Shown piece by piece: positions 1 to 13,983 of a DNA stretch of 64,000 bases; within the stretch, counting starts at the first letter, position 1; every line of letters begins with the position of its first letter. Source of the stretch: a virus; IMG/VR virus record IMGVR_UViG_3300035698_022738, positions 1 through 64,000 of that record, one strand, 5' to 3'. The notes below the pieces were generated by a model, which saw only the letters and a program-made list of their open reading frames with translations, did no database searches and was not told the DNA's origin. Both the position numbers and the translations under genes were made by a program.

Positions 1-3000
1 CCAGGCCAGCATGATCAGATTTCTCATGGGAATTGGGCGGATGGAAAAGGGGTTGTCAATTGGAGAGAACGAGTTGTACAGAACGACGGAAAAGCTGTTG
101 GACATCAAATCACGACCAAAGATGAGTTGGAGCAAGTTCTTAGAGGAACAAAAGGTCTTTGGGACCCAAACCCCAACAAGCTCCCTGTCTATATCAATCC
201 TCCAGGATCAATAGATGACTATCTTGAAAAGCTGACCGAGCAGCATAGCATAGAGGCTATAAACGAAAGGCGTTTATTTGTTTTTATGGTAGACAACAAG
301 ACTAGAGCTCTCGTCCTGCCAAGTGATATCACTTGGCAGGATTCCCACTGGGCACTTGCTGACTCTGTCTCAGGTCAGATACGGGGAGGACAGCCAGGGT
401 TCCTTTTAGGAGAGCGGGGAAATGTTTCAGATCAGGTGAATAACCTGTTGGATGGCTCAGTGCATGGGCGTGTTTATTTCAAAGAACCGTCTACGGAAGA
501 CTTTAATCTTAAGCTACAGATTGAAAGAATTGAGTTCAATATTGACTATGCTGGTGTTGTGAACACAAGAAACGAAAATTTTGCGTTCAATCTCGACTAT
601 GGGGATCCCTCTATCGGTGTTCAGTCGGGGGACGCTCGTGATAAGGCCTATGATAATATCTACGCTGCTATGGAGCAGCTCTCTAAGTTTGGGCTTGCCG
701 ATGATACTCAAGTTTTGATCCGTGATTGGTCGTTATCAGACGGTGTGCTCACAACTCTCAAACATCTTCCAGGTCAACACGATCAATTCTCTCATGAAAG
801 TTGGGCAAGGCAGGGAGTATTGTCAGGGTTTGAAGACTTTATTCAAGAGGATTACAGAGGACCCAGACCTGAGAGTTCGAGTAAATACGATGAGATGAGG
901 AATCATTATCTACTCCCTCCGGAGGCAGACAGTCCGATCATGGAAGTAAATGACCTGGCCGGAAGTGCCGCCGTTGAGGGGACAAAGAAATTTGTTCAAT
1001 ACCTATACGCTCCGGATGATCCAGATAAATGGGATGAGGACTACTGGTATGAACTCTCGTGGGATGCCGCACAAAAGATTGGAGAATCTTTTGATCCAGA
1101 GATTATAGAGGGTGAGTGGGGAGCTGACTTTTTCAGTGATGGGTACTTTACCGGAGACAAATTCAAAGACCGGGTGGATGATCTCATCAACGGCTGGAAT
1201 GAGCGCATGCCAACAAGTAATCTCACAGGTTTGTCTATGATGGAAGTAGCATCCGACCTTTTTGGTGTTGGTGAATCTGAATTCCAGAAAAATGAAAAGC
1301 CGATGTATGCCGGGGAAGAAGAGGGTAGTGAGAGGAGTGTCGCAGTTAGGGAGAGCCTGCCTCTGGGAGATGTGAGATATTCATTTCCGTTTGAAGAAGC
1401 TTGGAGAGATATGGAGATTCTGCCTCTCGGCTTTCCGACTGACTTCGAGTTTGCAGATGAGAGTAGAGCTGCAACCAGGTACATGCTTGGTAAGATGTAT
1501 GAGAATACTCAAACAGAGTTAGAGGCCGCAGGGGTAGAGAGTGTTATACTTTTCAGGGGGGTTCCGGCGCACAGGTTGGGAGATACTGAGACAGGGGCTG
1601 TCATTGAAATTGAGTCAAATACTCTGACAAGTTGGACAACTAACCCAGAGGTGGCTGCTCAGTTTGGAAGACGGATCGTAGCCGTAGTTCCAAGGGATCG
1701 TATTTTGTCTACCGCAAAAACAGGATTTGGAACATACCCACAGGCAGAGGTTGTGCTCATTGGCGGAATGGGGGGAGATCAAGCTCTTGTTTTGGATACA
1801 CCTGAAGCTGAGAGGATACAAGGTGGAATCTTTGGGGGTGCGTTCAAGCATCTCCCTGGTCAGCATGAACAGATTTCACATGGCAATTGGGCGGACGGCA
1901 GTTTAGAAGGCGATCCTATCCAGACCTCCGACATGTTTATTGTCGATGGCCGTGTGTGTGCATCTATCTTACGGGAGACTAGGGGCTACCATTCAGTTCA
2001 TCCCAATCAAATAGGAGTCTATATCAATCCAGAGAGCTCCCAGGATTATTTGGAAACTCTGAAAGCCCAGAATGGCGACTTGGAATACTACCCGAAGTTT
2101 GAAGTAAGAGTGCTCTATAACCCTAAGACAAGAGCTTTGATCTTGCCCTCCGATCCGATCTACCAAGACTCTCATCAAATGCTCGCTCAGGCCGTTGTGG
2201 GGCGTGATTTGGGGAGCATTGAATTTGATGAGTACGATTCGGGTGACTCCCTAGAAGCATCCTATGTGGGCAATGATTTACTGGACTCTTCGGTGCATTT
2301 GGTATTAGAGATTGACCCAGATGCGGGGTTTGTATTTACAGAGGTTGGAGCAAGTGTTCCCTTTGCCGGAGCAAGTGGAGAAAAGGCCTGGGATAACATC
2401 TATGATGCCTTTGATGCTCTGCACAAGTGGGGCCTGCCAGCGGAAACAAAGGTTGAAGTCTTTGGAGGGAGTTCCTTCAGAGATGTATTGAATACCACCC
2501 TCAAACATCTCCCAGGACAGCATGAACAGGAATCTCACGGAAACTGGGCGGATGGGCGGCCTTCCCTTCCGAGAGGTGCCATCACTGATATTGAGACAGT
2601 AGACAAAGTTTTGTCGAATGTGACAGGGCTCTGGAAGGCAAATGATGAGTCGGATGGGGTGTATATAAACACTCCCCTTGACCAGTATGTCGAAGTCCAG
2701 AAGGAGTTGAAATCATCTTTTGGGGAACCAATGGCATATTTGCCAGCTCTATTTGATCCAAAAACAAAGGCATTGATTTTTCCGAGAAGCCTCGTCTTTG
2801 ACACTCGACATGGAGGGATTGCAAAGAGTGTAACAGGCAATGATGGCGTCACAGAAAAGTACACGACAGATAACCCGCTATTCATTGATTTGATTGATAC
2901 TGAGCGGGAGCTTTTGGACAGGTGTGTACATTTGGAAGTTTTCCTTCGTCCTTCAGAGGATGGGAAAGTCTTGATTCCGGAGGTCACAGCTAATATAGAT

Positions 3001-4587
3001 TATGCCGGGTTCAAAAATGCCAGATACGACAACAAGAACAAAGCATACGACAATATCTACAAGGCTTTCGATAAGATGACCACTCTCGGGTTTCCTGAAG
3101 GCACGAAAGCCAGGATTACGGATAACTCGTTGACATACCCTGTCACGGAAGTTGACACGACCCTCAAACATCTACCAGGCCAGCATGAACAGGAATCTCA
3201 CGGCAATTGGGCTGATGGAATGGTGAAATACGAGAAGCGATTGGGATATGTTCAAGCTCCAAATCCAACCACAAACCCGTTAGATTATACAGACTCGGAG
3301 AAATATGCCCTCGATAAGTTGGGACGATCTTTGTCTACTCTGCACGACTTTTACGGAGAGTTTGATGATTTCCCCGAAGATATGAAAGAGGAATTATACT
3401 CCGTGATGCATGATGCTAGAGATGCTAAAAAGGAATGGCAAGTTGCCATCAAGAAGGAAATCAGCGTAGGAAACATTAAGCTCACAAAAGGGCAGTATAG
3501 TGGGAACTACGGAGATTTTACTGTCGAGGGCGGTCCTTGGAAAGAACCCGCTGACATATCAAGGAATGATCTTGACCTGAGAACTGGTCCAATTGTCCCT
3601 ATGTCAGAGTATCTGTGGCATGTGACAACAGCTGCCACCCAGCTAGAATCTGAGGGCTATATATTGAAGTCTCGGGATGATCTGGCTATGCAGCAAGGGA
3701 CAGGCCTTGGTGGGGGGGATGATACAACTATCAGTTTTTCCGATGACGAAGCGGTAGCAGAGGGTGTATACCGGGCCATGATTGAAGGCAGGGCTGTAGC
3801 CAGGGGTGACATCTCATTTCGTGATATGTTTGATGCCGCAGCTGAGGGTATCGAGGCAGATGAGCCGTGGGCTGGCAGATGGCTTGCATCAGTCACAGGC
3901 AGAACGAAATATGTAGATGAGACTCTTGCACCTGGGGATGCTATGCCACATGAGTTCGAGGCACTGGATGATGGGTATAACGCATTCGCTCTGGGGGTTA
4001 TGTCTCAGCCCATGACTGTTGAAGAAATCAACAGTTTTGACCCCCGTCTCGCAGATGATGGAACACGAGCAGAGGAGATCATACTAAGCCGCGCTGGGTT
4101 TGGTGGTATATTGGATGAGGTAGAACGAGCAAAAAGAAATTATGATGACTTCGAGTGGTCAGGGGTTGAACCTGACCTGTCATTTGAGCCAGTCGATTAT
4201 ACAGATGACGGAGAGCCTCGGTATAAGCACTTCTTGAGAAAAGTATCTCCAATGGAAAAACAAGATAAATACTTCAGTGCTTACACGACATGGCTGGGCC
4301 AGCGAGAAATTGCAAATGGTCCGATGAACCCTTTGTTCTGGAGCACTGATGTACAGTTTCTGGCAAACGCAGATAGGAGCGATATCCAGATACTCCACTA
4401 TCGGTCAAAGCCTGAATCTGTTGGACAGAGAATGGGGTCTCTCGCAGAATGGAGAACGTGGAACGGGGAGGCAGTTGTGTTTGACTCTCCGGCCAGGCAG
4501 TCAATGAATTATGTGGAAGATCAACTTGTCAAAACAAAGTTTGGTGAGAAGGTGATAGAGTCGCTCTACTTAGAGGTATACGACTGA
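1..4587 (+). CDS. Motif-delimited polyprotein 1 (5' truncated by the window edge): modules domain-X, ART (QxE), domain-X, domain-X, HVT-type ART-like
   Basis: Frame 1 is open from base 1 (PGQHDQISHGNWADGKGVVNW...) into the 127..4587 ORF. It has five KHLPGQHxQxSHGxWA-type motifs and an R..S-x-T..QxE ART signature at ~1495-1770. Confidence 0.8.
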   Translation, partial: PGQHDQISHGNWADGKGVVNWRERVVQNDGKAVGHQITTKDELEQVLRGTKGLWDPNPNKLPVYINPPGSIDDYLEKLTEQHSIEAINERRLFVFMVDNKTRALVLPSDITWQDSHWALADSVSGQIRGGQPGFLLGERGNVSDQVNNLLDGSVHGRVYFKEPSTEDFNLKLQIERIEFNIDYAGVVNTRNENFAFNLDYGDPSIGVQSGDARDKAYDNIYAAMEQLSKFGLADDTQVLIRDWSLSDGVLTTLKHLPGQHDQFSHESWARQGVLSGFEDFIQEDYRGPRPESSSKYDEMRNHYLLPPEADSPIMEVNDLAGSAAVEGTKKFVQYLYAPDDPDKWDEDYWYELSWDAAQKIGESFDPEIIEGEWGADFFSDGYFTGDKFKDRVDDLINGWNERMPTSNLTGLSMMEVASDLFGVGESEFQKNEKPMYAGEEEGSERSVAVRESLPLGDVRYSFPFEEAWRDMEILPLGFPTDFEFADESRAATRYMLGKMYENTQTELEAAGVESVILFRGVPAHRLGDTETGAVIEIESNTLTSWTTNPEVAAQFGRRIVAVVPRDRILSTAKTGFGTYPQAEVVLIGGMGGDQALVLDTPEAERIQGGIFGGAFKHLPGQHEQISHGNWADGSLEGDPIQTSDMFIVDGRVCASILRETRGYHSVHPNQIGVYINPESSQDYLETLKAQNGDLEYYPKFEVRVLYNPKTRALILPSDPIYQDSHQMLAQAVVGRDLGSIEFDEYDSGDSLEASYVGNDLLDSSVHLVLEIDPDAGFVFTEVGASVPFAGASGEKAWDNIYDAFDALHKWGLPAETKVEVFGGSSFRDVLNTTLKHLPGQHEQESHGNWADGRPSLPRGAITDIETVDKVLSNVTGLWKANDESDGVYINTPLDQYVEVQKELKSSFGEPMAYLPALFDPKTKALIFPRSLVFDTRHGGIAKSVTGNDGVTEKYTTDNPLFIDLIDTERELLDRCVHLEVFLRPSEDGKVLIPEVTANIDYAGFKNARYDNKNKAYDNIYKAFDKMTTLGFPEGTKARITDNSLTYPVTEVDTTLKHLPGQHEQESHGNWADGMVKYEKRLGYVQAPNPTTNPLDYTDSEKYALDKLGRSLSTLHDFYGEFDDFPEDMKEELYSVMHDARDAKKEWQVAIKKEISVGNIKLTKGQYSGNYGDFTVEGGPWKEPADISRNDLDLRTGPIVPMSEYLWHVTTAATQLESEGYILKSRDDLAMQQGTGLGGGDDTTISFSDDEAVAEGVYRAMIEGRAVARGDISFRDMFDAAAEGIEADEPWAGRWLASVTGRTKYVDETLAPGDAMPHEFEALDDGYNAFALGVMSQPMTVEEINSFDPRLADDGTRAEEIILSRAGFGGILDEVERAKRNYDDFEWSGVEPDLSFEPVDYTDDGEPRYKHFLRKVSPMEKQDKYFSAYTTWLGQREIANGPMNPLFWSTDVQFLANADRSDIQILHYRSKPESVGQRMGSLAEWRTWNGEAVVFDSPARQSMNYVEDQLVKTKFGEKVIESLYLEVYD

Positions 4588-6872
4588 TGAGATATAGAAC
4601 TGGAATTATGCGAAGAATGGTATCAGGTGGGGAGCCGTCGCCGGAAGATGATTTGAGAGATGTTGAGTTGGTTCCCGAGAGTTGGGAAGAGGAGACAGAA
4701 CTGAAACATCTCCCTGGTCAACATGACCAAATCTCTCATGGAAGTTGGGCTCAAGGTAGTGCAGAGGAGCCCGTGAGTCGAACACCTATCACAACAGTTG
4801 AACAAAGAAGGGAGCTCTTGGCTCAAAAGGATTTGTATGTCGAAGGCAATTTTCAGGATGGGCTGATGGGATATGCTCTGAATCCATCTAGTTTTGAGGA
4901 TGTCGTTCAATTTTGGAAAGGGGGCAATGTGGCCCCCAAAAGAGTTCCTGTCCTATATCATCCCAAAACCCACACACTTGTTTTTCCAGATGAGCCAACA
5001 GGACATCATAGAGAAGTCTACCTGGGTTTGTTCAATGTTCCCTTTGTTTATCCCAGTGTTCCATCAGAAGGAGTGCGTGAAGCTCAAACCTACGCAGAGG
5101 GGTTTTCTGATTCTTCAGTCCATCTCTACTTGAATCTTGACAAAGAATACAACATTGTACGGGTGGATGCTGATATAACATTTGCCGGAGAGGGATTTGG
5201 CGGATACGGTATGGGAGAGGACGAAAAAACAAAGGAGAGAGCCTACAAGAAAATTTACGAGTCTTTCGATAAACTGAAGGAAATAGGAATCTCTCCAGAG
5301 ACATCTGCAACTATCTCAGACTACACACTCTCCGGAAATGAACTCTCGACAACTCTCAAGCATCTCCCTGGTAGGCATGAGCAAGAATCTCATGGAAATT
5401 GGGCTAAAGGCAGTTCAACAAGTCTGCAAGAAAAATATACATCCAAAAGAATGTCGTTGATCGAAATTGTTGGAAAGTTGGAGCCCGAGGTTGTTGTCAG
5501 GGTAGCATCCAACCAGATTCCAGAGGGCTTTGGAACATACTATAATTATGAGGGAGAATCTGATTTTTGGTCCCCCCCAAAAGATATTTTGTTTGATGTT
5601 GTTGCCCAGTTCAAAAATCCAATCTTAACTGAGATGTCTGAAAATCTCATTGAACCTGAAAGTCTCGTCGAGGATGCCAGGGCGGCTATGCAAGAGTTGG
5701 GCGGCGGCGGAGAGGATGGATTGGATAACGCTCTTGCTCAGGGATTTCGAGTTGTAACTGTACGAAGGTCCACTAATATAGGTGGATGGACAAGGAGAGA
5801 TGACGAGCTATATATCGTCAAAACAGAACCGTCCAAGTGGTTGGAAGTGCGAGAGAGCCAGGGAACATCTCCAAAAATTGAATCTTCTCAAGGGCAAATT
5901 CCAGAAAACATTAAGTCCATGAGACTTCGAGACATTGATAGAGAAAATGGACAAATGAATCGGTACATATCGGGCGAGCAAGACATCGACGACCCCCTTG
6001 CGCTGAAAGTTGATTCTATCCTGGCTGGGGATAGCAAGGACAAGATAGCTACTAATCTATCAAAGGCAGCTCGTATTTCGTATGATGATGCAAACAGTCT
6101 CATTAAAGGATGGGCACAAACATCAAATGATGGTGATGGGCTGGCTTTGGGAGTCCAGCAAGCGGTGTCCGAAGAGTTTGGAATTCCCATGCAAGATTGG
6201 CAAAAGGAACATATGGCTCGTGTTCAGAGTAGTAGGGAAGAGCATTTTCCTGGGATGATCTATGAGACGGATGCCTATCCTTTTGAGCTAGGTTATCATA
6301 AGGTTCTGTCTGCCGAAACTCTTTTGGATAAGGAATGGAGTGAGTTCGGCAAAGAAAAAACAAAAACCATGCTGCGCGTCATGTATGATCAGACACAGAC
6401 AGAGTTGGAAGCAGCCGGGATTGAATATGTCACAGTGTTTAGGGGCGTTGGGTCCTCTATTCCGGAAACTTTCGAGGATTCTCCGTGGAAGAGTATGGAC
6501 AATCTGTCAATGAACCCGATTTCGAGTTGGTCAACATCTCCTTTAGTTGCCTCAGGATTTGGGAATACTGTGCTCGCGATGCGGGTTCCCAGAGAGCGTA
6601 TTTTATCGACTCCCCAGACGGGTTTTGGCTGTACAAATGAATTTGAGGTTGTCCTTCTCGGAGACCCCAAAGGTCAAGATACTGCTATAATTTTCCCAGA
6701 ATATTTAACTCAGTCATATCCACATGGATCACCCGTCAAAGTCTATGACCCAGATGACAATATCATCAAAGTGGTTGATGACGGAGAAGTGATCTATGTT
6801 GAAGATATGACGAATGAAGAAAAGATGGAATACGGGGTGTGGATAGAGGGAATGGGTTGGACAGTCACATAG
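4587..6872 (+). CDS. Motif-delimited polyprotein 2: 39-aa leader, domain-X module, module ending in an ADP-ribosyltransferase (ExE)
   Basis: Two motif copies. C-terminal VFRGV...ISSWSTS...NEFEVVL is an R-S-E ART signature, paralogous to the ART in gene 1. Confidence 0.8.
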   Translation: MRYRTGIMRRMVSGGEPSPEDDLRDVELVPESWEEETELKHLPGQHDQISHGSWAQGSAEEPVSRTPITTVEQRRELLAQKDLYVEGNFQDGLMGYALNPSSFEDVVQFWKGGNVAPKRVPVLYHPKTHTLVFPDEPTGHHREVYLGLFNVPFVYPSVPSEGVREAQTYAEGFSDSSVHLYLNLDKEYNIVRVDADITFAGEGFGGYGMGEDEKTKERAYKKIYESFDKLKEIGISPETSATISDYTLSGNELSTTLKHLPGRHEQESHGNWAKGSSTSLQEKYTSKRMSLIEIVGKLEPEVVVRVASNQIPEGFGTYYNYEGESDFWSPPKDILFDVVAQFKNPILTEMSENLIEPESLVEDARAAMQELGGGGEDGLDNALAQGFRVVTVRRSTNIGGWTRRDDELYIVKTEPSKWLEVRESQGTSPKIESSQGQIPENIKSMRLRDIDRENGQMNRYISGEQDIDDPLALKVDSILAGDSKDKIATNLSKAARISYDDANSLIKGWAQTSNDGDGLALGVQQAVSEEFGIPMQDWQKEHMARVQSSREEHFPGMIYETDAYPFELGYHKVLSAETLLDKEWSEFGKEKTKTMLRVMYDQTQTELEAAGIEYVTVFRGVGSSIPETFEDSPWKSMDNLSMNPISSWSTSPLVASGFGNTVLAMRVPRERILSTPQTGFGCTNEFEVVLLGDPKGQDTAIIFPEYLTQSYPHGSPVKVYDPDDNIIKVVDDGEVIYVEDMTNEEKMEYGVWIEGMGWTVT

Positions 6873-7299: not shown

Positions 7300-7590
7300 A
7301 TGGCAGACAAAAAGAAGAAAACTGGTGGTGTGATCTTGGATCGCTCGTTGCATATCAATCCCTACACTGAAGAGGGGAAAAAGGCGCATGACCAGATCAT
7401 GCGTGAGACGCTTGAGGCCCTCGGGGCAGAAGTGCCAGAGGATTTGAAAAAGCGCACGGATGCGGCAGGGCATATCGATATTGATGCCATGATCGAAAAA
7501 GAGCGCAAGGAAAGAGAAGGGGAGTCAAAGGTAGATGTTGGTGATCTGGCAGAGGCTGTGAAAGAACTTGAAGAATCTTTGGAGGAATAA
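7300..7590 (+). CDS. Hypothetical acidic protein
   Basis: GGAGG RBS; TAATG coupling to the next gene. Confidence 0.7.
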   Translation: MADKKKKTGGVILDRSLHINPYTEEGKKAHDQIMRETLEALGAEVPEDLKKRTDAAGHIDIDAMIEKERKEREGESKVDVGDLAEAVKELEESLEE

Positions 7591-8453
7591 TGCGAGCCAG
7601 TAACTTGATTGCTGATCTACAAACTACCCTCAAGCATCTTCCAGGTCAGCATAACCAAGACGATCATGGAAGTTGGGCTCGTGGGCGTCAGTTGCCGTTA
7701 CCAGGGATGAACCCGCCTGGGTCTGAGTTCCCCAAAGTCTTCACAACTCACGGCAGTCAAACAGCAGATGCCGTGATGGTTAAGTGGGCAGAGGAAAAGG
7801 CTTTGCTTACTCATGAAGAGGGTCTGGCTATTGATGACTCCGGCAATGTGATATTTTCTGTTGTCGGAGAGAAGGATGTGATAAATCTCACAGATGACCA
7901 AGCATCTCAGATGCGTGATGCAATCTTCATTCATAACCATCCTGGAGCTGCCTTGACGTTTTCTGGGGAGGATTTGCTTACCTTTTCGCAACAAGAGGTA
8001 TTGGAGGGGCATGTGATTGGAGTAGATCACAATGGTCAATACAATCATTACAGTGTCAGTGCTCCGGAAGGAGACCCTGATAATTGGCCTGCTACTCCAT
8101 ACATTGCGGCTGCTTTGGATTCTGCTCACATCTCAGGGCTATACCTCTATGAGGTCATGACTGAGGACCTGGGCATTGATCAGTATGACGCCCAGGAACT
8201 TTGTGCGTCCTGGGAGAACGAGACGATTGGGAACTATTTTGACATGGACTACAAGGCTGAGGGAGTTAGGAGCAAAGAGAGCTTTGCCACAGAACATTGG
8301 GAGAGATTGAATGCCGCCTTCATTGAACGAGGCTATGGTCCTATTCCTCCGGCGGATGAATTTGCGATTCCCTTTGCATTTGACCCAGTTGACGCAGTTG
8401 ATCAGGCCAGGATGCAATCTATCTTATCTGGAGCATTCACACCATTCTTTTAA
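7590..8453 (+). CDS. Motif-bearing cargo protein with a JAB/MPN-like metalloenzyme domain
   Basis: 14-aa leader, then the motif; EEGL...IHNHPG..TFSGEDL matches the JAB pattern E..HxH-x7-S-x2-D. Confidence 0.7.
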   Translation: MRASNLIADLQTTLKHLPGQHNQDDHGSWARGRQLPLPGMNPPGSEFPKVFTTHGSQTADAVMVKWAEEKALLTHEEGLAIDDSGNVIFSVVGEKDVINLTDDQASQMRDAIFIHNHPGAALTFSGEDLLTFSQQEVLEGHVIGVDHNGQYNHYSVSAPEGDPDNWPATPYIAAALDSAHISGLYLYEVMTEDLGIDQYDAQELCASWENETIGNYFDMDYKAEGVRSKESFATEHWERLNAAFIERGYGPIPPADEFAIPFAFDPVDAVDQARMQSILSGAFTPFF

Positions 8454-8469
8454 TTAAACGGAGGTATAA

Positions 8470-9429
8470 ATGTCATCAATAACGATGATCCCAAGAAGGG
8501 AGAACTTCCCCCAGCAGGGAGGGGTTCGAGAGCATTTGATTCAGTTGACCAAGTGTATTGAGAGTTCAAACAAGTTCAACATTGTTCCATTTGGAGGGAG
8601 CCTCACTCATGTTGAGTCTTCATACAACTCTAAAGACAATATCAGACCGGACATCTATGTTTGTCACGGCGGATTTGAGCCGGAGCCCATTCAGGCTGTC
8701 TTGCGGAATCTAAGAGATGCCAAATTGATAGTGAGTGTTGCCAGGTGGATGGTTCCTGCTTACATGAGTGCAGTAACATACAAAACGGTAGTCATACCGA
8801 ATGGTATTGATCTCGATGATTTCAAGTCAGAGTATTTGCAGAGGGTCGAGACCAAGCCTGGGTATGTTTTGTATCCGAAGGCTGTCCCATATCATATGGA
8901 TGATGTATTTGATATCGCAGGGGCAATGCCAAAAACAAAGTTCCTGACAATCGCCAGGATCGAGAGGAACAAATATCCAAACAATATCCGGTGTATTGGT
9001 TTACAGAGTCATCGGTGGATGAAGAATTACATACGAGATGCTGCCTGCGTGCTACTGACCGGGCCTGAAGTCTGTCCAACGATTATGTTGGAGGCCTGGG
9101 CAGTTGGAACTCCGGTAGTGTTTCACAACTATGATCGAGGAGCCTGGGAGCTGACAACATGGGGACATAGCCATCCGATTTGTGTAGGAGCTATTCCCTA
9201 TAGGACCTTGCCAGAGGCAGTTCGTGCAGTTGAAGTTTGCAGGGACAACAAAGCCTATTATGGGGAAGCCGGTAAGCAAATGGTTGCCGATCATTTTCAG
9301 TGGAACAAACTTTTCAAACGATATGAAGGTGCATATGACGCACTCACGTATGGGGATATTGCCGTGCAAGATTTTATCAAAGCCGCGCAAAAGTGGTACA
9401 CCACGCGACCCTCGCCGTTGCCTGATTAA
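8470..9429 (+). CDS. Glycosyltransferase family 4 (GT-B)
   Basis: GGV N-terminal loop, VIPNGID, EVCPTIMLEAWAVGTPVV (E-x7-E), C-terminal F.W. Confidence 0.85.
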   Translation: MSSITMIPRRENFPQQGGVREHLIQLTKCIESSNKFNIVPFGGSLTHVESSYNSKDNIRPDIYVCHGGFEPEPIQAVLRNLRDAKLIVSVARWMVPAYMSAVTYKTVVIPNGIDLDDFKSEYLQRVETKPGYVLYPKAVPYHMDDVFDIAGAMPKTKFLTIARIERNKYPNNIRCIGLQSHRWMKNYIRDAACVLLTGPEVCPTIMLEAWAVGTPVVFHNYDRGAWELTTWGHSHPICVGAIPYRTLPEAVRAVEVCRDNKAYYGEAGKQMVADHFQWNKLFKRYEGAYDALTYGDIAVQDFIKAAQKWYTTRPSPLPD

Positions 9430-9730
9430 GAAAAAGGGGTATGGGCCAGACTGGATCAGACAGCGCAAGCTGGCTATGGAGCGTGATAATTACACCTGTC
9501 AGAAGTGTGGATACGTTGGAAAGAGGCGGAAGAGTAAGCCACGTAGATGGAGTGTGTCTGTGCATCATATCACAAAGATCAAAAACTTTGCCAACACCAA
9601 GACTGGAGAGGTTGACTACAAGACAGCCAACGACCTCTCCAATCTTGTTACTCTTTGTGATCGATGCCACAAAGCAGCTGACGGTCATACACCACTCAAG
9701 GGATTTTCTGGATTTCGAGGGAAGATATGA
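9350..9730 (+). CDS. HNH endonuclease (start uncertain; the ORF is open from 9224)
   Basis: RDNYTCQKC...VHHI...NLVTLCDRCH. Confidence 0.85.
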   Translation: MGILPCKILSKPRKSGTPRDPRRCLIKKKGYGPDWIRQRKLAMERDNYTCQKCGYVGKRRKSKPRRWSVSVHHITKIKNFANTKTGEVDYKTANDLSNLVTLCDRCHKAADGHTPLKGFSGFRGKI

Positions 9731-11397
9731 GCATTTTATCGGATGTTAAAGAAGCCTTGACTTTTGTTGAGTTGGATACAAGACTCAAACATCTTCCAGG
9801 ACAACATGACCAAGCAAGCCATGGGAGCTGGGCAAGCGGAACTTTTCGGAATGTCACTCAGTATATTGATCCGGACGAAGCTCGCAGGGCCAGGGCCTAC
9901 AATCCATCGGGACAGTCACTCACCGATATGTTTGCTTCCCAAGAGGATGAGGATGATTGGGTATGGTCAGAGGATGAGGGTGATTGGGTGTGGACAGGGG
10001 AGGATGAGACTCCGACTCTGGATAAGCCTTCCGACTGGAACAAGGCTGCTATCGAGGAGTTTGGGCTCACATATGATCTGGCAGAGGCCGGATATGTTCT
10101 CACCAATGGAGACATGCTAGATTTCAGTGGAAAACGTGAGGGAGGTTCTCCAGGTGTGCGCTCATATGACCATAGACAAATAGGTGTGGCATTTGAGGAT
10201 TACGACATAGAGACACTGGGTGGAACTGACGGCATGATGTACTTCATGCAGGAATCCGGTGCTATCAGAATTAGTTACTATGGGGATGATGTAACAATAG
10301 ACATTGCTGCATATCCAACCACAAAGCAATTTGATTGGTTGAAAGAGATAGATGAGCAATATCCCATAATTTGGGATGTGACCGATCCGGCTACCGGGTA
10401 CAGACTGGATTCCGGAGAAGGGTTTAGGGATTTGAGGAGTGCGATTAGTGATGCCTACAATGACCCAAAAACGGGGTTTAAGCATCTCCCTGGTCAGCAT
10501 GAACAGATTTCACATGGCAATTGGGCAGACAGGTTGTCCTATTATAGAGACCAAAGACAAGAAATGTCGGATCAAGAATGGTCTGAGTTCAAACGCATTG
10601 AACGAGAGTGGATGCGCGGTCAATCCTCTATGTTCACTAAAGAGGAATGGGAGGCATTGAACGAGGCCTCCGATGATAAGCCTCTGCCAAGAGTAGGTGA
10701 ATCAACCAGTCCCCGGGTTGAATTTGATGTTGAAGATACATGCAGTCTGAGAATAGCACTCGATGAGCATAATATAAATCTGGATGATATCCAGGCAGTC
10801 GTTGATCTCAATATTGATGGTCTTGTGAGTCAGACAGAGGTCAGTGCTGACAACTCATATGATGATGACATTCGAGTGAAAAGTGAGATTGTAGATTCCG
10901 GCGGGAACTCCGTAGGGAATATTGAATTCAACATTACTTCATACTCTATTCGATTTGGTTACTTTAAGCTCGATAATCAGTATGGTCGCTCGGGGAACGC
11001 CGTAGAAATCATCAATGATATGGTGAGCCTAGGCCAGAGGGCTGGTATTGACAGAATTTCTCTTGAGGCTGACATTTCAATCGGAAAATACGCATGGGCA
11101 AAGCTTGGTTTTGATTACGACGGTTCCGATTATTCTCCGGAACAGGCGTCAGAAGTTTTTCAAAATTGGTTTAGTGATATGAGCTATCTCCATGGGTTAG
11201 ATGAGCCTCCGGATGGATGGCCCGAGTTTGAGTCAGCTATGCATGTAGCTGAATACGATCCTGGAATCTATGTCAAAGGGTCGAATATATCGAACAGAGA
11301 TGTACCAAAGGATATGACTTTACCACTCGGAAAGGCTTTCATGTTGGATGATAGAGGTCATGGAAAGTGGCACGGAGAGCTCTACGTCTGGAACTAA
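9727..11397 (+). CDS. Motif-delimited polyprotein 4: 20-aa leader, unknown module, GNAT-like acetyltransferase module
   Basis: Two motif copies; second module has YFKLDNQYGRSGNA...ISLEA..IGKYAWAKLGF (GNAT motif A/B-like). Confidence 0.72.
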   Translation: MSILSDVKEALTFVELDTRLKHLPGQHDQASHGSWASGTFRNVTQYIDPDEARRARAYNPSGQSLTDMFASQEDEDDWVWSEDEGDWVWTGEDETPTLDKPSDWNKAAIEEFGLTYDLAEAGYVLTNGDMLDFSGKREGGSPGVRSYDHRQIGVAFEDYDIETLGGTDGMMYFMQESGAIRISYYGDDVTIDIAAYPTTKQFDWLKEIDEQYPIIWDVTDPATGYRLDSGEGFRDLRSAISDAYNDPKTGFKHLPGQHEQISHGNWADRLSYYRDQRQEMSDQEWSEFKRIEREWMRGQSSMFTKEEWEALNEASDDKPLPRVGESTSPRVEFDVEDTCSLRIALDEHNINLDDIQAVVDLNIDGLVSQTEVSADNSYDDDIRVKSEIVDSGGNSVGNIEFNITSYSIRFGYFKLDNQYGRSGNAVEIINDMVSLGQRAGIDRISLEADISIGKYAWAKLGFDYDGSDYSPEQASEVFQNWFSDMSYLHGLDEPPDGWPEFESAMHVAEYDPGIYVKGSNISNRDVPKDMTLPLGKAFMLDDRGHGKWHGELYVWN

Positions 11398-11958: not shown

Positions 11959-13983
11959 TTGAATAGACCAAAAGTGTCGATTGTAATCCCTTGTTACCAG
12001 CATCAAACAATAGTGAAGAGAGCTGTAGCAAGTGCATTAGCACAAAAAAATGCGCCCAAATATGAGGTCATTGTTGTAGATGACGGCTCTGATCCGCCAG
12101 TTGCGGCGATGAGGGGAGTTCGTCTCATACGGCACGAAGAGAATAAGGGGTTGGCGGCTGCTTTGAACACGGGTGTACGTGCATCCAAAGCTAGCCGTTT
12201 TGTGATTCTGGCCTCTGATGACGAGCTCGATCCACTCTACATGAACGAGATGACTAAGCATAAGTCCGATATTGTCAGCTGTGACATGATGATATCTGAT
12301 GAGCATATCCTGATGAGATCTGGAAATTTATACAGGCTCAAGAAGGGGAACTGTCACTCATATGCAGCCCTGGTAACTAGAGATATGTTCAACAGAGTGG
12401 GTGGGTTCAAGAACATGAATCCATCCTGGGAGGATTATGAGTTTTGGTTGAATTGTGCAAAGCATGCAGCAAAGTGGAAGCATGTAAAGAAGCCTTTGCA
12501 CATCTACTATCACACAAAGGATGGGCGTAACGAGCAAGCTCAGGGAAAGGATCGCCTGCTAAACGGCCTGCTGCACGGCTACCACGAGGACCTGTATGGT
12601 CTGGGTATGGGGCTCGTTGGAGTGGTGATCCCCTGCTATAAGCATGAGGAGTTTGTTCTCGAGGCCGTGGAATCCTGTCTACATCAAAGCTACCCTCATG
12701 TTCAGGTTGTTGTGGTTGATGACGGGTCCCCTGGTGATGTTAAAGGAGCTTTGAAGGGAGTGAGTGACCCTGAACGGCTTTCAATCTTGAGGCAAGATAA
12801 CAGGGGCCTATCAGGGGCCAGGAATTCAGGCATACGCTATTTGATATCAAAATTCTATCCAGAATACACAATGATGCTTGACGCAGATGATATGATAGAC
12901 GAGAAATTCATCGAAACCACAATGACTGTGATGCAGGATAATGAGTTTGTGTACACGGATGTCCAGTTCTTTGGGGATGCTTGGCACATCTATGAGCTAC
13001 CGGAATGGGATAGGAATTTAATTCTCCGTAAGCATTTGCATCCGTGTACATTTCTTGCACCGTCTAAAATGTTCGATAACGTGATTGAAAGTCGTGGTTA
13101 TTGCTATGATGAGGATATGAAGGACGGCTATGAAGACTGGGAGTTCAGCATTGCATGTGCGATGTGTGACTGGAATGGAAAACGTGTGCCACAGCCTCTT
13201 TTTCAGTATAGGCAGTTTCAAAATGGATCAATGAGAACTGAGGCAAACAAAAAGAACAAAGACCTTGCCAAGTATATTCGAGAGAAGCACAGTTGGATTT
13301 CGACTGGAGGTTGGAGACAAATGGCTGGATGTACATCTTGCGGAGGTAACAGAATGGCAAAGACAGGTCCAGGAGCTCTCAAGGTTATCGTTCCAGGAAT
13401 AGGTGAGGTAATCTGGGACACCCCGTTAAGTGTGGAGTACACTGGGATCACAACCAGCACCGTTACCAAGATTGGTCATGGAGGCCAAATCTATAAGTTT
13501 AGCGGTGATCTCGAAAAGCAGGCAAGGGGGTATGGACCCCGATTTATTGCGAAGGCTGTAGACGCCCATCTCTTCTCAGGCCCATTTGAGCTGAATCCAA
13601 TCAGTAGTGAACCCGAAGTACAAAGAGATGAAGAGGCGGAAACACTTCAGATCGAGAGGGCTCCGGTTGTTCAAGACCCCAAGGGAACGAGGCTGGTTGA
13701 TCTGCGAAGGCCTTTGACGGAAGAAGAGACTGAAAAGAAAAAGGAACAAGAGTTCGAGGAAATTCAGGAGCGGGCGGCTGCGGTTGTGATTGCCTCTGAT
13801 GACCTAACACAAATCAAAGGTGTTGGGCCAGCTTATGAGGAAAAGCTAAAAGCTGCTGGGTATACTTTCCTTGTCGATCTTGCTGGGGCACACTCCGATG
13901 AGTTGAGTCTGCTGCTGGGGATCAAATCTGAAAAGGCTGAATCGTTGATTGCAGCCGCTCTGGCAGTGATGAATGAATCTTAG
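11959..13983 (+). CDS. Tandem GT2 glycosyltransferase fused to a CxxC domain and a C-terminal helix-hairpin-helix
   Basis: Two IVIPCY...VVDDGS...GL..A.N.G...EDY/WEF units; DDLTQIKGVGP HhH motif. Confidence 0.88.
   Translation: MNRPKVSIVIPCYQHQTIVKRAVASALAQKNAPKYEVIVVDDGSDPPVAAMRGVRLIRHEENKGLAAALNTGVRASKASRFVILASDDELDPLYMNEMTKHKSDIVSCDMMISDEHILMRSGNLYRLKKGNCHSYAALVTRDMFNRVGGFKNMNPSWEDYEFWLNCAKHAAKWKHVKKPLHIYYHTKDGRNEQAQGKDRLLNGLLHGYHEDLYGLGMGLVGVVIPCYKHEEFVLEAVESCLHQSYPHVQVVVVDDGSPGDVKGALKGVSDPERLSILRQDNRGLSGARNSGIRYLISKFYPEYTMMLDADDMIDEKFIETTMTVMQDNEFVYTDVQFFGDAWHIYELPEWDRNLILRKHLHPCTFLAPSKMFDNVIESRGYCYDEDMKDGYEDWEFSIACAMCDWNGKRVPQPLFQYRQFQNGSMRTEANKKNKDLAKYIREKHSWISTGGWRQMAGCTSCGGNRMAKTGPGALKVIVPGIGEVIWDTPLSVEYTGITTSTVTKIGHGGQIYKFSGDLEKQARGYGPRFIAKAVDAHLFSGPFELNPISSEPEVQRDEEAETLQIERAPVVQDPKGTRLVDLRRPLTEEETEKKKEQEFEEIQERAAAVVIASDDLTQIKGVGPAYEEKLKAAGYTFLVDLAGAHSDELSLLLGIKSEKAESLIAAALAVMNES

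Follow-up and report, generated by a model that had tools for sequence, protein, structure and literature searches.

What is the domain of about 200 residues that recurs, in diverged copies, in two giant proteins of an uncultured phage, and what might it do there? The question is raised by IMG/VR virus record IMGVR_UViG_3300035698_022738, a single virus contig of 96,851 bp whose first 64 kb (the window) is the stretch of DNA analysed here. The large open reading frames (ORFs) of the window lie on the plus strand throughout. The first, P0001, is open in frame 1 from base 1 to 4587 (1,528 amino acids, aa) and is followed directly by P0002 (ORF2); together with an ORF at the opposite end of the contig they hold five copies of the domain, here called X. 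From its predicted structure, X can be described with confidence as a self-contained alpha/beta domain with an orphan fold. As to its role, the chances are about even that X is an undescribed cargo or effector domain of phage "polyvalent" virion proteins that has been duplicated in tandem. The four copies in the window, each identified by alignment, profile and blastp, are as follows.

46..762, plus strand: X copy 1, 239 aa, with an insertion of ~20 aa in the beta6-alpha5 loop
1900..2505, plus strand: X copy 3, 202 aa
2557..3168, plus strand: X copy 4, 204 aa, the copy used for modelling
4758..5360, plus strand: X copy 6, 201 aa

The boundaries of the copies were set after removal of the short peptide tags that flank them. 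A fifth copy, X0, lies at genome positions 95,459-96,052 (L001:9459-10052), in an ORF that runs off the 3' end of the contig. The four copies in the window align over their full length, with pairwise blastp E values of 1e-7 to 1e-23 and identities of 27-36%, and in a search of the genome with a family profile each X copy scores E 1e-51 to 1e-58, while no other sequence falls below E 1. The initial annotation of this DNA, made from the sequence alone, had described four diverged copies of one domain. They are true paralogues, located very nearly where it placed them, and the ordered motifs that it listed (VYINP, PKTxAL, H, LLDxSVH, IDYAG, KAYDNIY, TTLK) are found in the copies. Its count holds for these four; the fifth copy lies outside the range it gave, and the "KHLPGQH..." ends that it included belong to the separate tag rather than to the domain.

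The family to which these copies belong is almost invisible to current resources. Neither the whole proteins nor 15 members of the X family have a relevant match in Pfam (at E up to 5), PHROGs or NCBIfam, and a PDB sequence profile search with X returns nothing below E 0.008. No match was obtained by tblastn of X against 50,697 GenBank phage records or by megablast of the locus, and no relative by an IMG/VR scan with the X pattern; the ESM Atlas contains no usable match for X copy 4 and, for the relative P0022, a 0.80 lead only. In an exhaustive hmmsearch, the five-copy profile retrieves 24 of 1.84 billion representative proteins at E 1e-3 or better, among them the phage's own ORF2; each of the 24 is either a modular protein or consists of tag plus X. 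To these a word-based search adds only P0028 among proteins of near length, and no homologue among proteins as long as the polyprotein or longer. The ten relatives that were looked up are metagenomic clusters of one or two sequences each, without an informative name. By these searches, X is a real, very small and purely "dark matter" family. The proposal of a new family in the initial annotation is thus borne out: no Pfam, PHROG, NCBIfam, PDB-sequence or fold match was found, and neither profile searches nor Foldseek assign X to a well-known family.

The PADLOC Cas2 model PDLC01568 gives a weak match in 2 of 15 X-family members (best E 0.0027); the genome contains no match to Pfam CRISPR_Cas2 at E up to 10, and no Cas2 structure occurs among the fold matches. 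Isoelectric points (pI) of X range from 4.4 to 9.8 across the family, and on this ground the idea that X is a DNA mimic or DNA binder was rejected.

Predicted fold and conserved residues

The AlphaFold2 model of X copy 4, built from a 15-sequence alignment, has a mean predicted local distance difference test score (pLDDT) of 89.9 and a predicted template modelling score (pTM) of 0.89. Its helices (a) and strands (b) follow the order a1 b1 b2 a2 b3 b4 a3 a4 b5 b6 a5 b7 b8. A Foldseek search of X against PDB and BFVD yields nothing at E 1e-3 or better. The nearest solved structures are the Stay-Green Mg-dechelatase (PDB 7y5y) and gelsolin/ADF-H folds, with scores below the noise level, 3-5% identity and no Pfam support, which is to be read as the absence of a known fold neighbour and not as a relationship. 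Several weak BFVD matches (E 0.05-0.3) are large proteins of uncultured phages annotated as MuF head morphogenesis, RadC-like JAB or PolyVal ADP-ribosyltransferase (ART) proteins. Polyvalent proteins may therefore contain structural relatives of part of X more often than comparison of sequences suggests.

A small set of residues is retained across the family (numbering of X copy 4; counts over 35 domain instances). His85, Asp121 and His125 are invariant in the four copies of the window. In the family, position 85 is His in 32/33 instances and position 121 is Asp in 29/32, and position 125 is split between Arg (20 of 34 instances) and His (14); the fifth copy of this phage, X0, is among those with Arg. 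The two invariant His and one Asp noted in the initial annotation therefore hold for the window copies, but family-wide the second His does not. Also conserved are Ala150-Gly151, Asn166, Ile167, Tyr168, Asp172, Gly178, Pro180, Thr183 and a C-terminal Thr-Thr. Their pattern suggests that His85, Asp121, Arg/His125, Asn166, Tyr168 and the Thr-Thr pair may form one shared catalytic or ligand-binding site, with surfaces that otherwise diverge.

The initial annotation proposed a metal-dependent or ligand-binding family; in the metal-dependent version, the two His and the Asp would act as metal chelators. The invariance of the three residues within the window fits such an enzyme, but the replacement of the second His by Arg in 20 of 34 instances does not, and a basic Arg/His position beside His and Asp argues against a classical three-ligand metal site. 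A metal-dependent enzyme of this type is accordingly very unlikely. Arg/His125, together with His85 and Asp121, would be compatible with a shared catalytic, phosphate-binding or carboxylate-binding site, and a small-molecule or phosphate-type site is slightly preferred here to a purely protein-binding role.

Tags, partner modules and the polyprotein

The proteins that carry X are divided into modules by an 18-residue peptide, K-HLPGQH[DEN]Q..HG.WA.G, which heads every module. Thirteen copies of this tag occur in the genome, distributed over five ORFs, all in frame and on the plus strand. Every X copy sits between two tags, and the tag also flanks unrelated modules. Tag copies differ at synonymous sites, so the peptide is kept by selection and does not stem from recent copying of the DNA. 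In a fold prediction of X copy 4 with a tag on either side, X is unaltered and the tags fall below pLDDT 50 (predicted disordered). The tag is therefore best described as a flexible linear motif outside domain X, and the possibility that it forms part of the domain was rejected. A literature search with the literal sequence of the tag returned nothing relevant. The exact tag is present in 27 IMG/VR loci, in none of which X was found except as a weak partial match in L014. The tags and the remaining features of the two proteins in the window are listed below.

1..45, plus strand: tag cut by the contig start, PGQHDQISHGNWADG; the remainder lies at the other contig end
763..813, plus strand: tag, HLPGQHDQFSHESWARQ
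814..1848, plus strand: module 2, whose C-terminal part is a weak match to a DRAT-like R-S-E ADP-ribosyltransferase (PF07357, E 0.0026, 17.4 bits; curated cut-off 25)
1849..1899, plus strand: tag
2506..2556, plus strand: tag
3169..3219, plus strand: tag
3220..4587, plus strand: module 5, 455 aa, the C-terminal end of the polyprotein
4587..6872, plus strand: second cargo ORF (P0002), 761 aa, consisting of a leader, tag, X copy 6, tag and a 486-aa module with a C-terminal DRAT-like ART
4707..4757, plus strand: tag
5361..5411, plus strand: tag, HLPGRH variant

The two ends of the contig (window 1-14 and genome 96,838-96,851) both lie inside a tag copy and have 14 nucleotides (nt) of tag DNA in common, and joining them restores the reading frame and one complete tag. 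P0001 and the ORF that runs off the 3' end are thus most likely a single ORF of ~2,020 aa, with the order leader, X0, JAMM-like module, X1, ART module, X3, X4 and module 5. The record is classed as linear and its CheckV completeness is 53%. Because the overlap is itself tag DNA, modules bounded by tags could be missing from the join; the assembly probably broke at a repeated tag, and the polyprotein may contain extra modules.

In this arrangement X alternates along the polypeptide with ADP-ribosyltransferase and other modules: the polyprotein combines four X copies with three other modules (DRAT-like ART, JAMM-like and unassigned), and ORF2 combines X with an ART. X precedes the other modules in each case: X0 stands ahead of the JAMM-like module, X1 of the ART, the pair X3-X4 of module 5, and X6 of module 7, which contains the second ART. 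DRAT is the sole Pfam match of P0001 and P0002, and the C-terminal ART of P0002 exceeds the cut-off (PF07357, E 2.1e-6, 27.6 bits). For module 2, the motifs FRG, SWT and QAE were identified from the translation. The two DRAT-like R-S-E modules (814-1848 and 5412-6869) differ in that one has Q-x-E and the other E-x-E, a difference in sequence that suggests different target residues.

The module between X0 and X1 (L001:10104-10828, genome about 96,103-96,827) carries H-N-H-P-x6-S-x-x-D, recognised by eye as a signature resembling that of JAMM/RadC-type metallopeptidases. It has no match in Pfam or among PDB sequences, and a comparable stretch is present in the relative P0010. The two X proteins of this phage contain no zincin match or HExxH motif, although several relatives do have HExxH modules, and Pfam finds no MuF domain in them.

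The polyprotein lies between a terminase-like gene (a weak TerL match, E 0.0062) and a tape-measure gene; the ORFs directly upstream of it have no match in Pfam, PHROGs or PDB. From this setting, the polyprotein and the 761-aa protein appear to be encoded in the late or structural part of the genome. A related phage, IMGVR_UViG_3300009509_000706 (L033 / G001), has a 61%-identical homologue of the ORF of 509 aa that lies upstream of the polyprotein, yet contains neither tag nor X across its 67-kb record, which is bounded by direct terminal repeats. The cassette is therefore an accessory, lineage-specific addition.

Tags also occur in this genome away from X. Two more, of an HNQ variant (KHLPGQHNQDDHG.WA.G), are found at window 7632-7682 (ORF 7590-8453) and at genome 81,003 (ORF 80,916-81,491; L032:10916-11488). 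ORF 7590-8453 begins with a 15-aa leader that ends in ...TTLK although no X precedes it. A third tagged ORF (window 9727-11397, 556 aa) combines two unassigned modules with tags at 9790 and 10483, and is surrounded by glycosyltransferase genes (8470-9429 and 11959-13983).

Relatives in other uncultured phages

In its relatives X nearly always starts directly after a short tag and ends with ...TTL(K) at the next tag or at the C-terminus of the protein. Four types of tag precede it: the HDQ type seen here, G-H-x-G-R-P-G-x-x-G-G-S, HPR...G.F/W and GGHWVKGSF. The occurrence of X behind four tag types fits shuffled cargo rather than a receptor for the tag, and on this basis the receptor role was rejected. 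X is the only module in 10/24 relatives, 8 of which have it behind a recognisable tag. Elsewhere it is accompanied by toxin-type partners, including Zeta_toxin kinases (P0005 and P0015, with X on the N-terminal side), an anthrax-LF-like (ATLF-like) zincin (P0009) and ARTs. In P0024 and P0028, X occupies the C-terminal slot of Phage_Mu_F head proteins (30.3 bits against a cut-off of 29.6 in P0024; PF04233 in P0028), and a 44%-identical MuF orthologue ends without X. To judge by this distribution, X is an accessory domain that is mobile between tag systems and becomes attached to head proteins.

The initial annotation attributed the expansion of X to duplication, and this is borne out by the five copies of this phage and by sister copies, with good support, that other phages carry within one protein. 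A maximum-likelihood tree groups as mutual closest relatives the copies within P0005, P0015 and P0020 (with strong support) and those within P0003, from which it follows that tandem duplication within one protein happened repeatedly. The branching of this phage's own five copies is not resolved in the tree, and their monophyly is neither shown nor excluded.

In L030 (Ga0315274_10000759, 1-21,897), a metagenomic phage contig that contains relative P0008, six consecutive or nearby ORFs with 1-4 HDQ-type tags each make up a second, larger tagged-cargo locus. In L031 (9956-11442), a stand-alone gene of tag plus X, similar to P0016, lies directly between a tagged ART gene and a tape-measure gene; a transposase is encoded some 2 kb upstream.

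Role of domain X

As a cargo or effector domain, X would take part in a pathway for which the tag provides the punctuation. The tag would mark modules for loading into the procapsid, and the polyprotein would be cut at the tag junctions to yield about five different X proteins of ~22 kDa each. The freed modules would stay in the head until they are injected together with the DNA, after which each X protein would act on the host at an early stage. The analysis shows the domain with its copies, family, confident orphan fold, architectures and accessory distribution, whereas the steps from packaging and cleavage to injection, and the effector activity itself, are inferred. An effector role is plausible in view of the company that X keeps, since ART, Zeta-toxin and zincin modules occur on the same chains, and of its place in two MuF proteins, where it fills the C-terminal cargo slot.

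Injection of multi-domain proteins has been argued in general for phage polyvalent proteins, among which a protein with 12 ART copies is described and T4 Alt is cited (Iyer, Burroughs, Anand, de Souza, Aravind 2017, PMC5512222). MuF polymorphic toxins, with a variable C-terminal toxin domain, have been described from temperate phages (Jamet et al. 2017, PMC5576092). These published precedents for injected multi-domain proteins and multi-copy effector arrays (PMC5512222, PMC5576092) support the cargo reading. Like polyvalent proteins, the proteins of this phage combine at least two unrelated effector-type domains per polypeptide; they differ in the strictly conserved 18-aa tag that separates their modules, which is not described in PMC5512222, and in that the MPTase zincin, frequent but not obligatory in polyvalent proteins, was not found in this phage's two proteins.

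X resembles the orphan domains LPD1-LPD40 in being globular and in occurring in giant multi-domain phage proteins with ARTs, zincin peptidases, JAB-like and MuF domains; it also occurs solo beside structural genes and in several copies per polypeptide. Unlike the LPD families, which are part of Pfam, X has no match there at E up to 5, and its family is very small, with 24 clusters in a set of 1.84 billion proteins. With MuF toxins X has in common its place after Phage_Mu_F, at the position of the variable toxin, in P0024 and P0028, and the existence of a MuF orthologue that lacks it; the X copies of this phage, however, are not fused to MuF, and its genome has no obvious lysogeny context. The internal proteins and Alt of phage T4 carry a capsid targeting sequence (CTS), are cut by the prohead protease gp21 and are injected with the DNA. 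The working model resembles them in that small proteins and an ART, preceded by a short N-terminal peptide, would be carried in the head, released by the head protease, injected and active early. It differs in that there is no relation of sequence or fold, in that many modules share one chain, and in an 18-aa His-rich tag instead of the T4 CTS. X thus appears to be functionally like LPD domains and the variable C-terminal domains of MuF proteins. The tagged cargo polyproteins in which it occurs are a known kind of system; the domain family itself is new, and its fold is so far unmatched.

Several points weigh against a cargo or effector role. The phage is uncultured, and packaging and cleavage at the tags are putative. 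The polyprotein itself is without a MuF or zincin peptidase domain. The join across the contig ends is deduced from an overlap of only 14 nt, within a tag, in a record that is 53% complete by CheckV. The head-module context depends on gene order and the weak TerL match, and the upstream ORFs are without a family match. The conserved polar residues are possibly structural, and no fold or family match indicates any chemistry.

In an alternative reading, X would be a carrier, spacer or internal head protein that loads, spaces or solubilises toxic modules, or fills or organises the capsid interior in the manner of inner-body proteins, with no action on the host. The position of X directly behind a tag and ahead of each other module in this phage, and N-terminal to Zeta_toxin in P0005 and P0015, is what a carrier might show; several copies per protein fit a stoichiometric role, and no chemistry can be assigned to X. 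Yet X is the sole module in 10 of 24 relatives, where it has nothing to carry, the MuF-X fusions end with X, and X is paired with four tag types. Its absence from the related phage and from the MuF orthologue makes it dispensable for head assembly, the spread of pI values from 4.4 to 9.8 does not suit a DNA-condensing role, and its polar residues are conserved across about 20% identity. A structural or carrier function of this sort is unlikely.

In this phage, as in P0005, P0015 and P0009, X alternates with modules of toxin type, which might be expected of an antidote in cis that silences the adjacent toxin in the producing cell until the polyprotein is cut, and no separate immunity gene was seen beside the X gene in L031. 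Such an antidote is highly unlikely, however: one family accompanies unrelated toxins (ART, Zeta kinase, zincin and JAMM-like), and X also occurs alone, in tandem with no toxin between the copies (X3-X4) and as the sole appendage of MuF, whereas known immunity proteins are toxin-specific (PMC5576092). Carrier, chaperone and antidote roles are together argued against by stand-alone X, the MuF-X fusions, dispensability, tag promiscuity and the polar residues kept at about 20% identity. The remaining alternative, that X is a peptidase that cuts the tag junctions, in cis where its own ...TTLK meets HLPGQH or else in trans, draws on the nearly invariant His and Asp, on the conserved Thr-Thr immediately before the tag and on the lack of a recognised processing peptidase in the polyprotein. 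It is extremely unlikely, in that the same tag follows modules other than X, stand-alone X proteins offer no junction to cut after their terminal TTL, no peptidase fold match or conserved Ser or Cys nucleophile is found, and a processing enzyme would hardly be expected in five diverged copies.

The cargo or effector reading can be extended. Diversification of X against a host defence target, raised in the initial annotation, is speculation. A more far-reaching proposal, possible but doubtful, is that X combines a new fold with a new His-Asp-Arg/His-Asn-Tyr site, and that its diverged paralogues are delivered by the capsid, each to neutralise another variant of a host defence or early-infection target. 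If true, the polyprotein would be an injected, multi-specific counter-defence array, enlarged by tandem duplication.

Proteins delivered by the capsid are the first phage products to meet the host, and most of their domains are uncharacterised. X, a candidate for such a domain, folds confidently in a model and goes unrecognised by sequence and structure libraries; it is repeatedly duplicated in the cargo polyproteins of unrelated uncultured phages and fused to MuF. If X is only a carrier or filler, it still informs the organisation of tag-punctuated cargo polyproteins. Should it prove to be an injected effector, the repertoire by which phages take over the host early or counter its defences would gain a new activity, probably with a new fold, and the five natural variants in one phage would constitute a ready-made specificity series.

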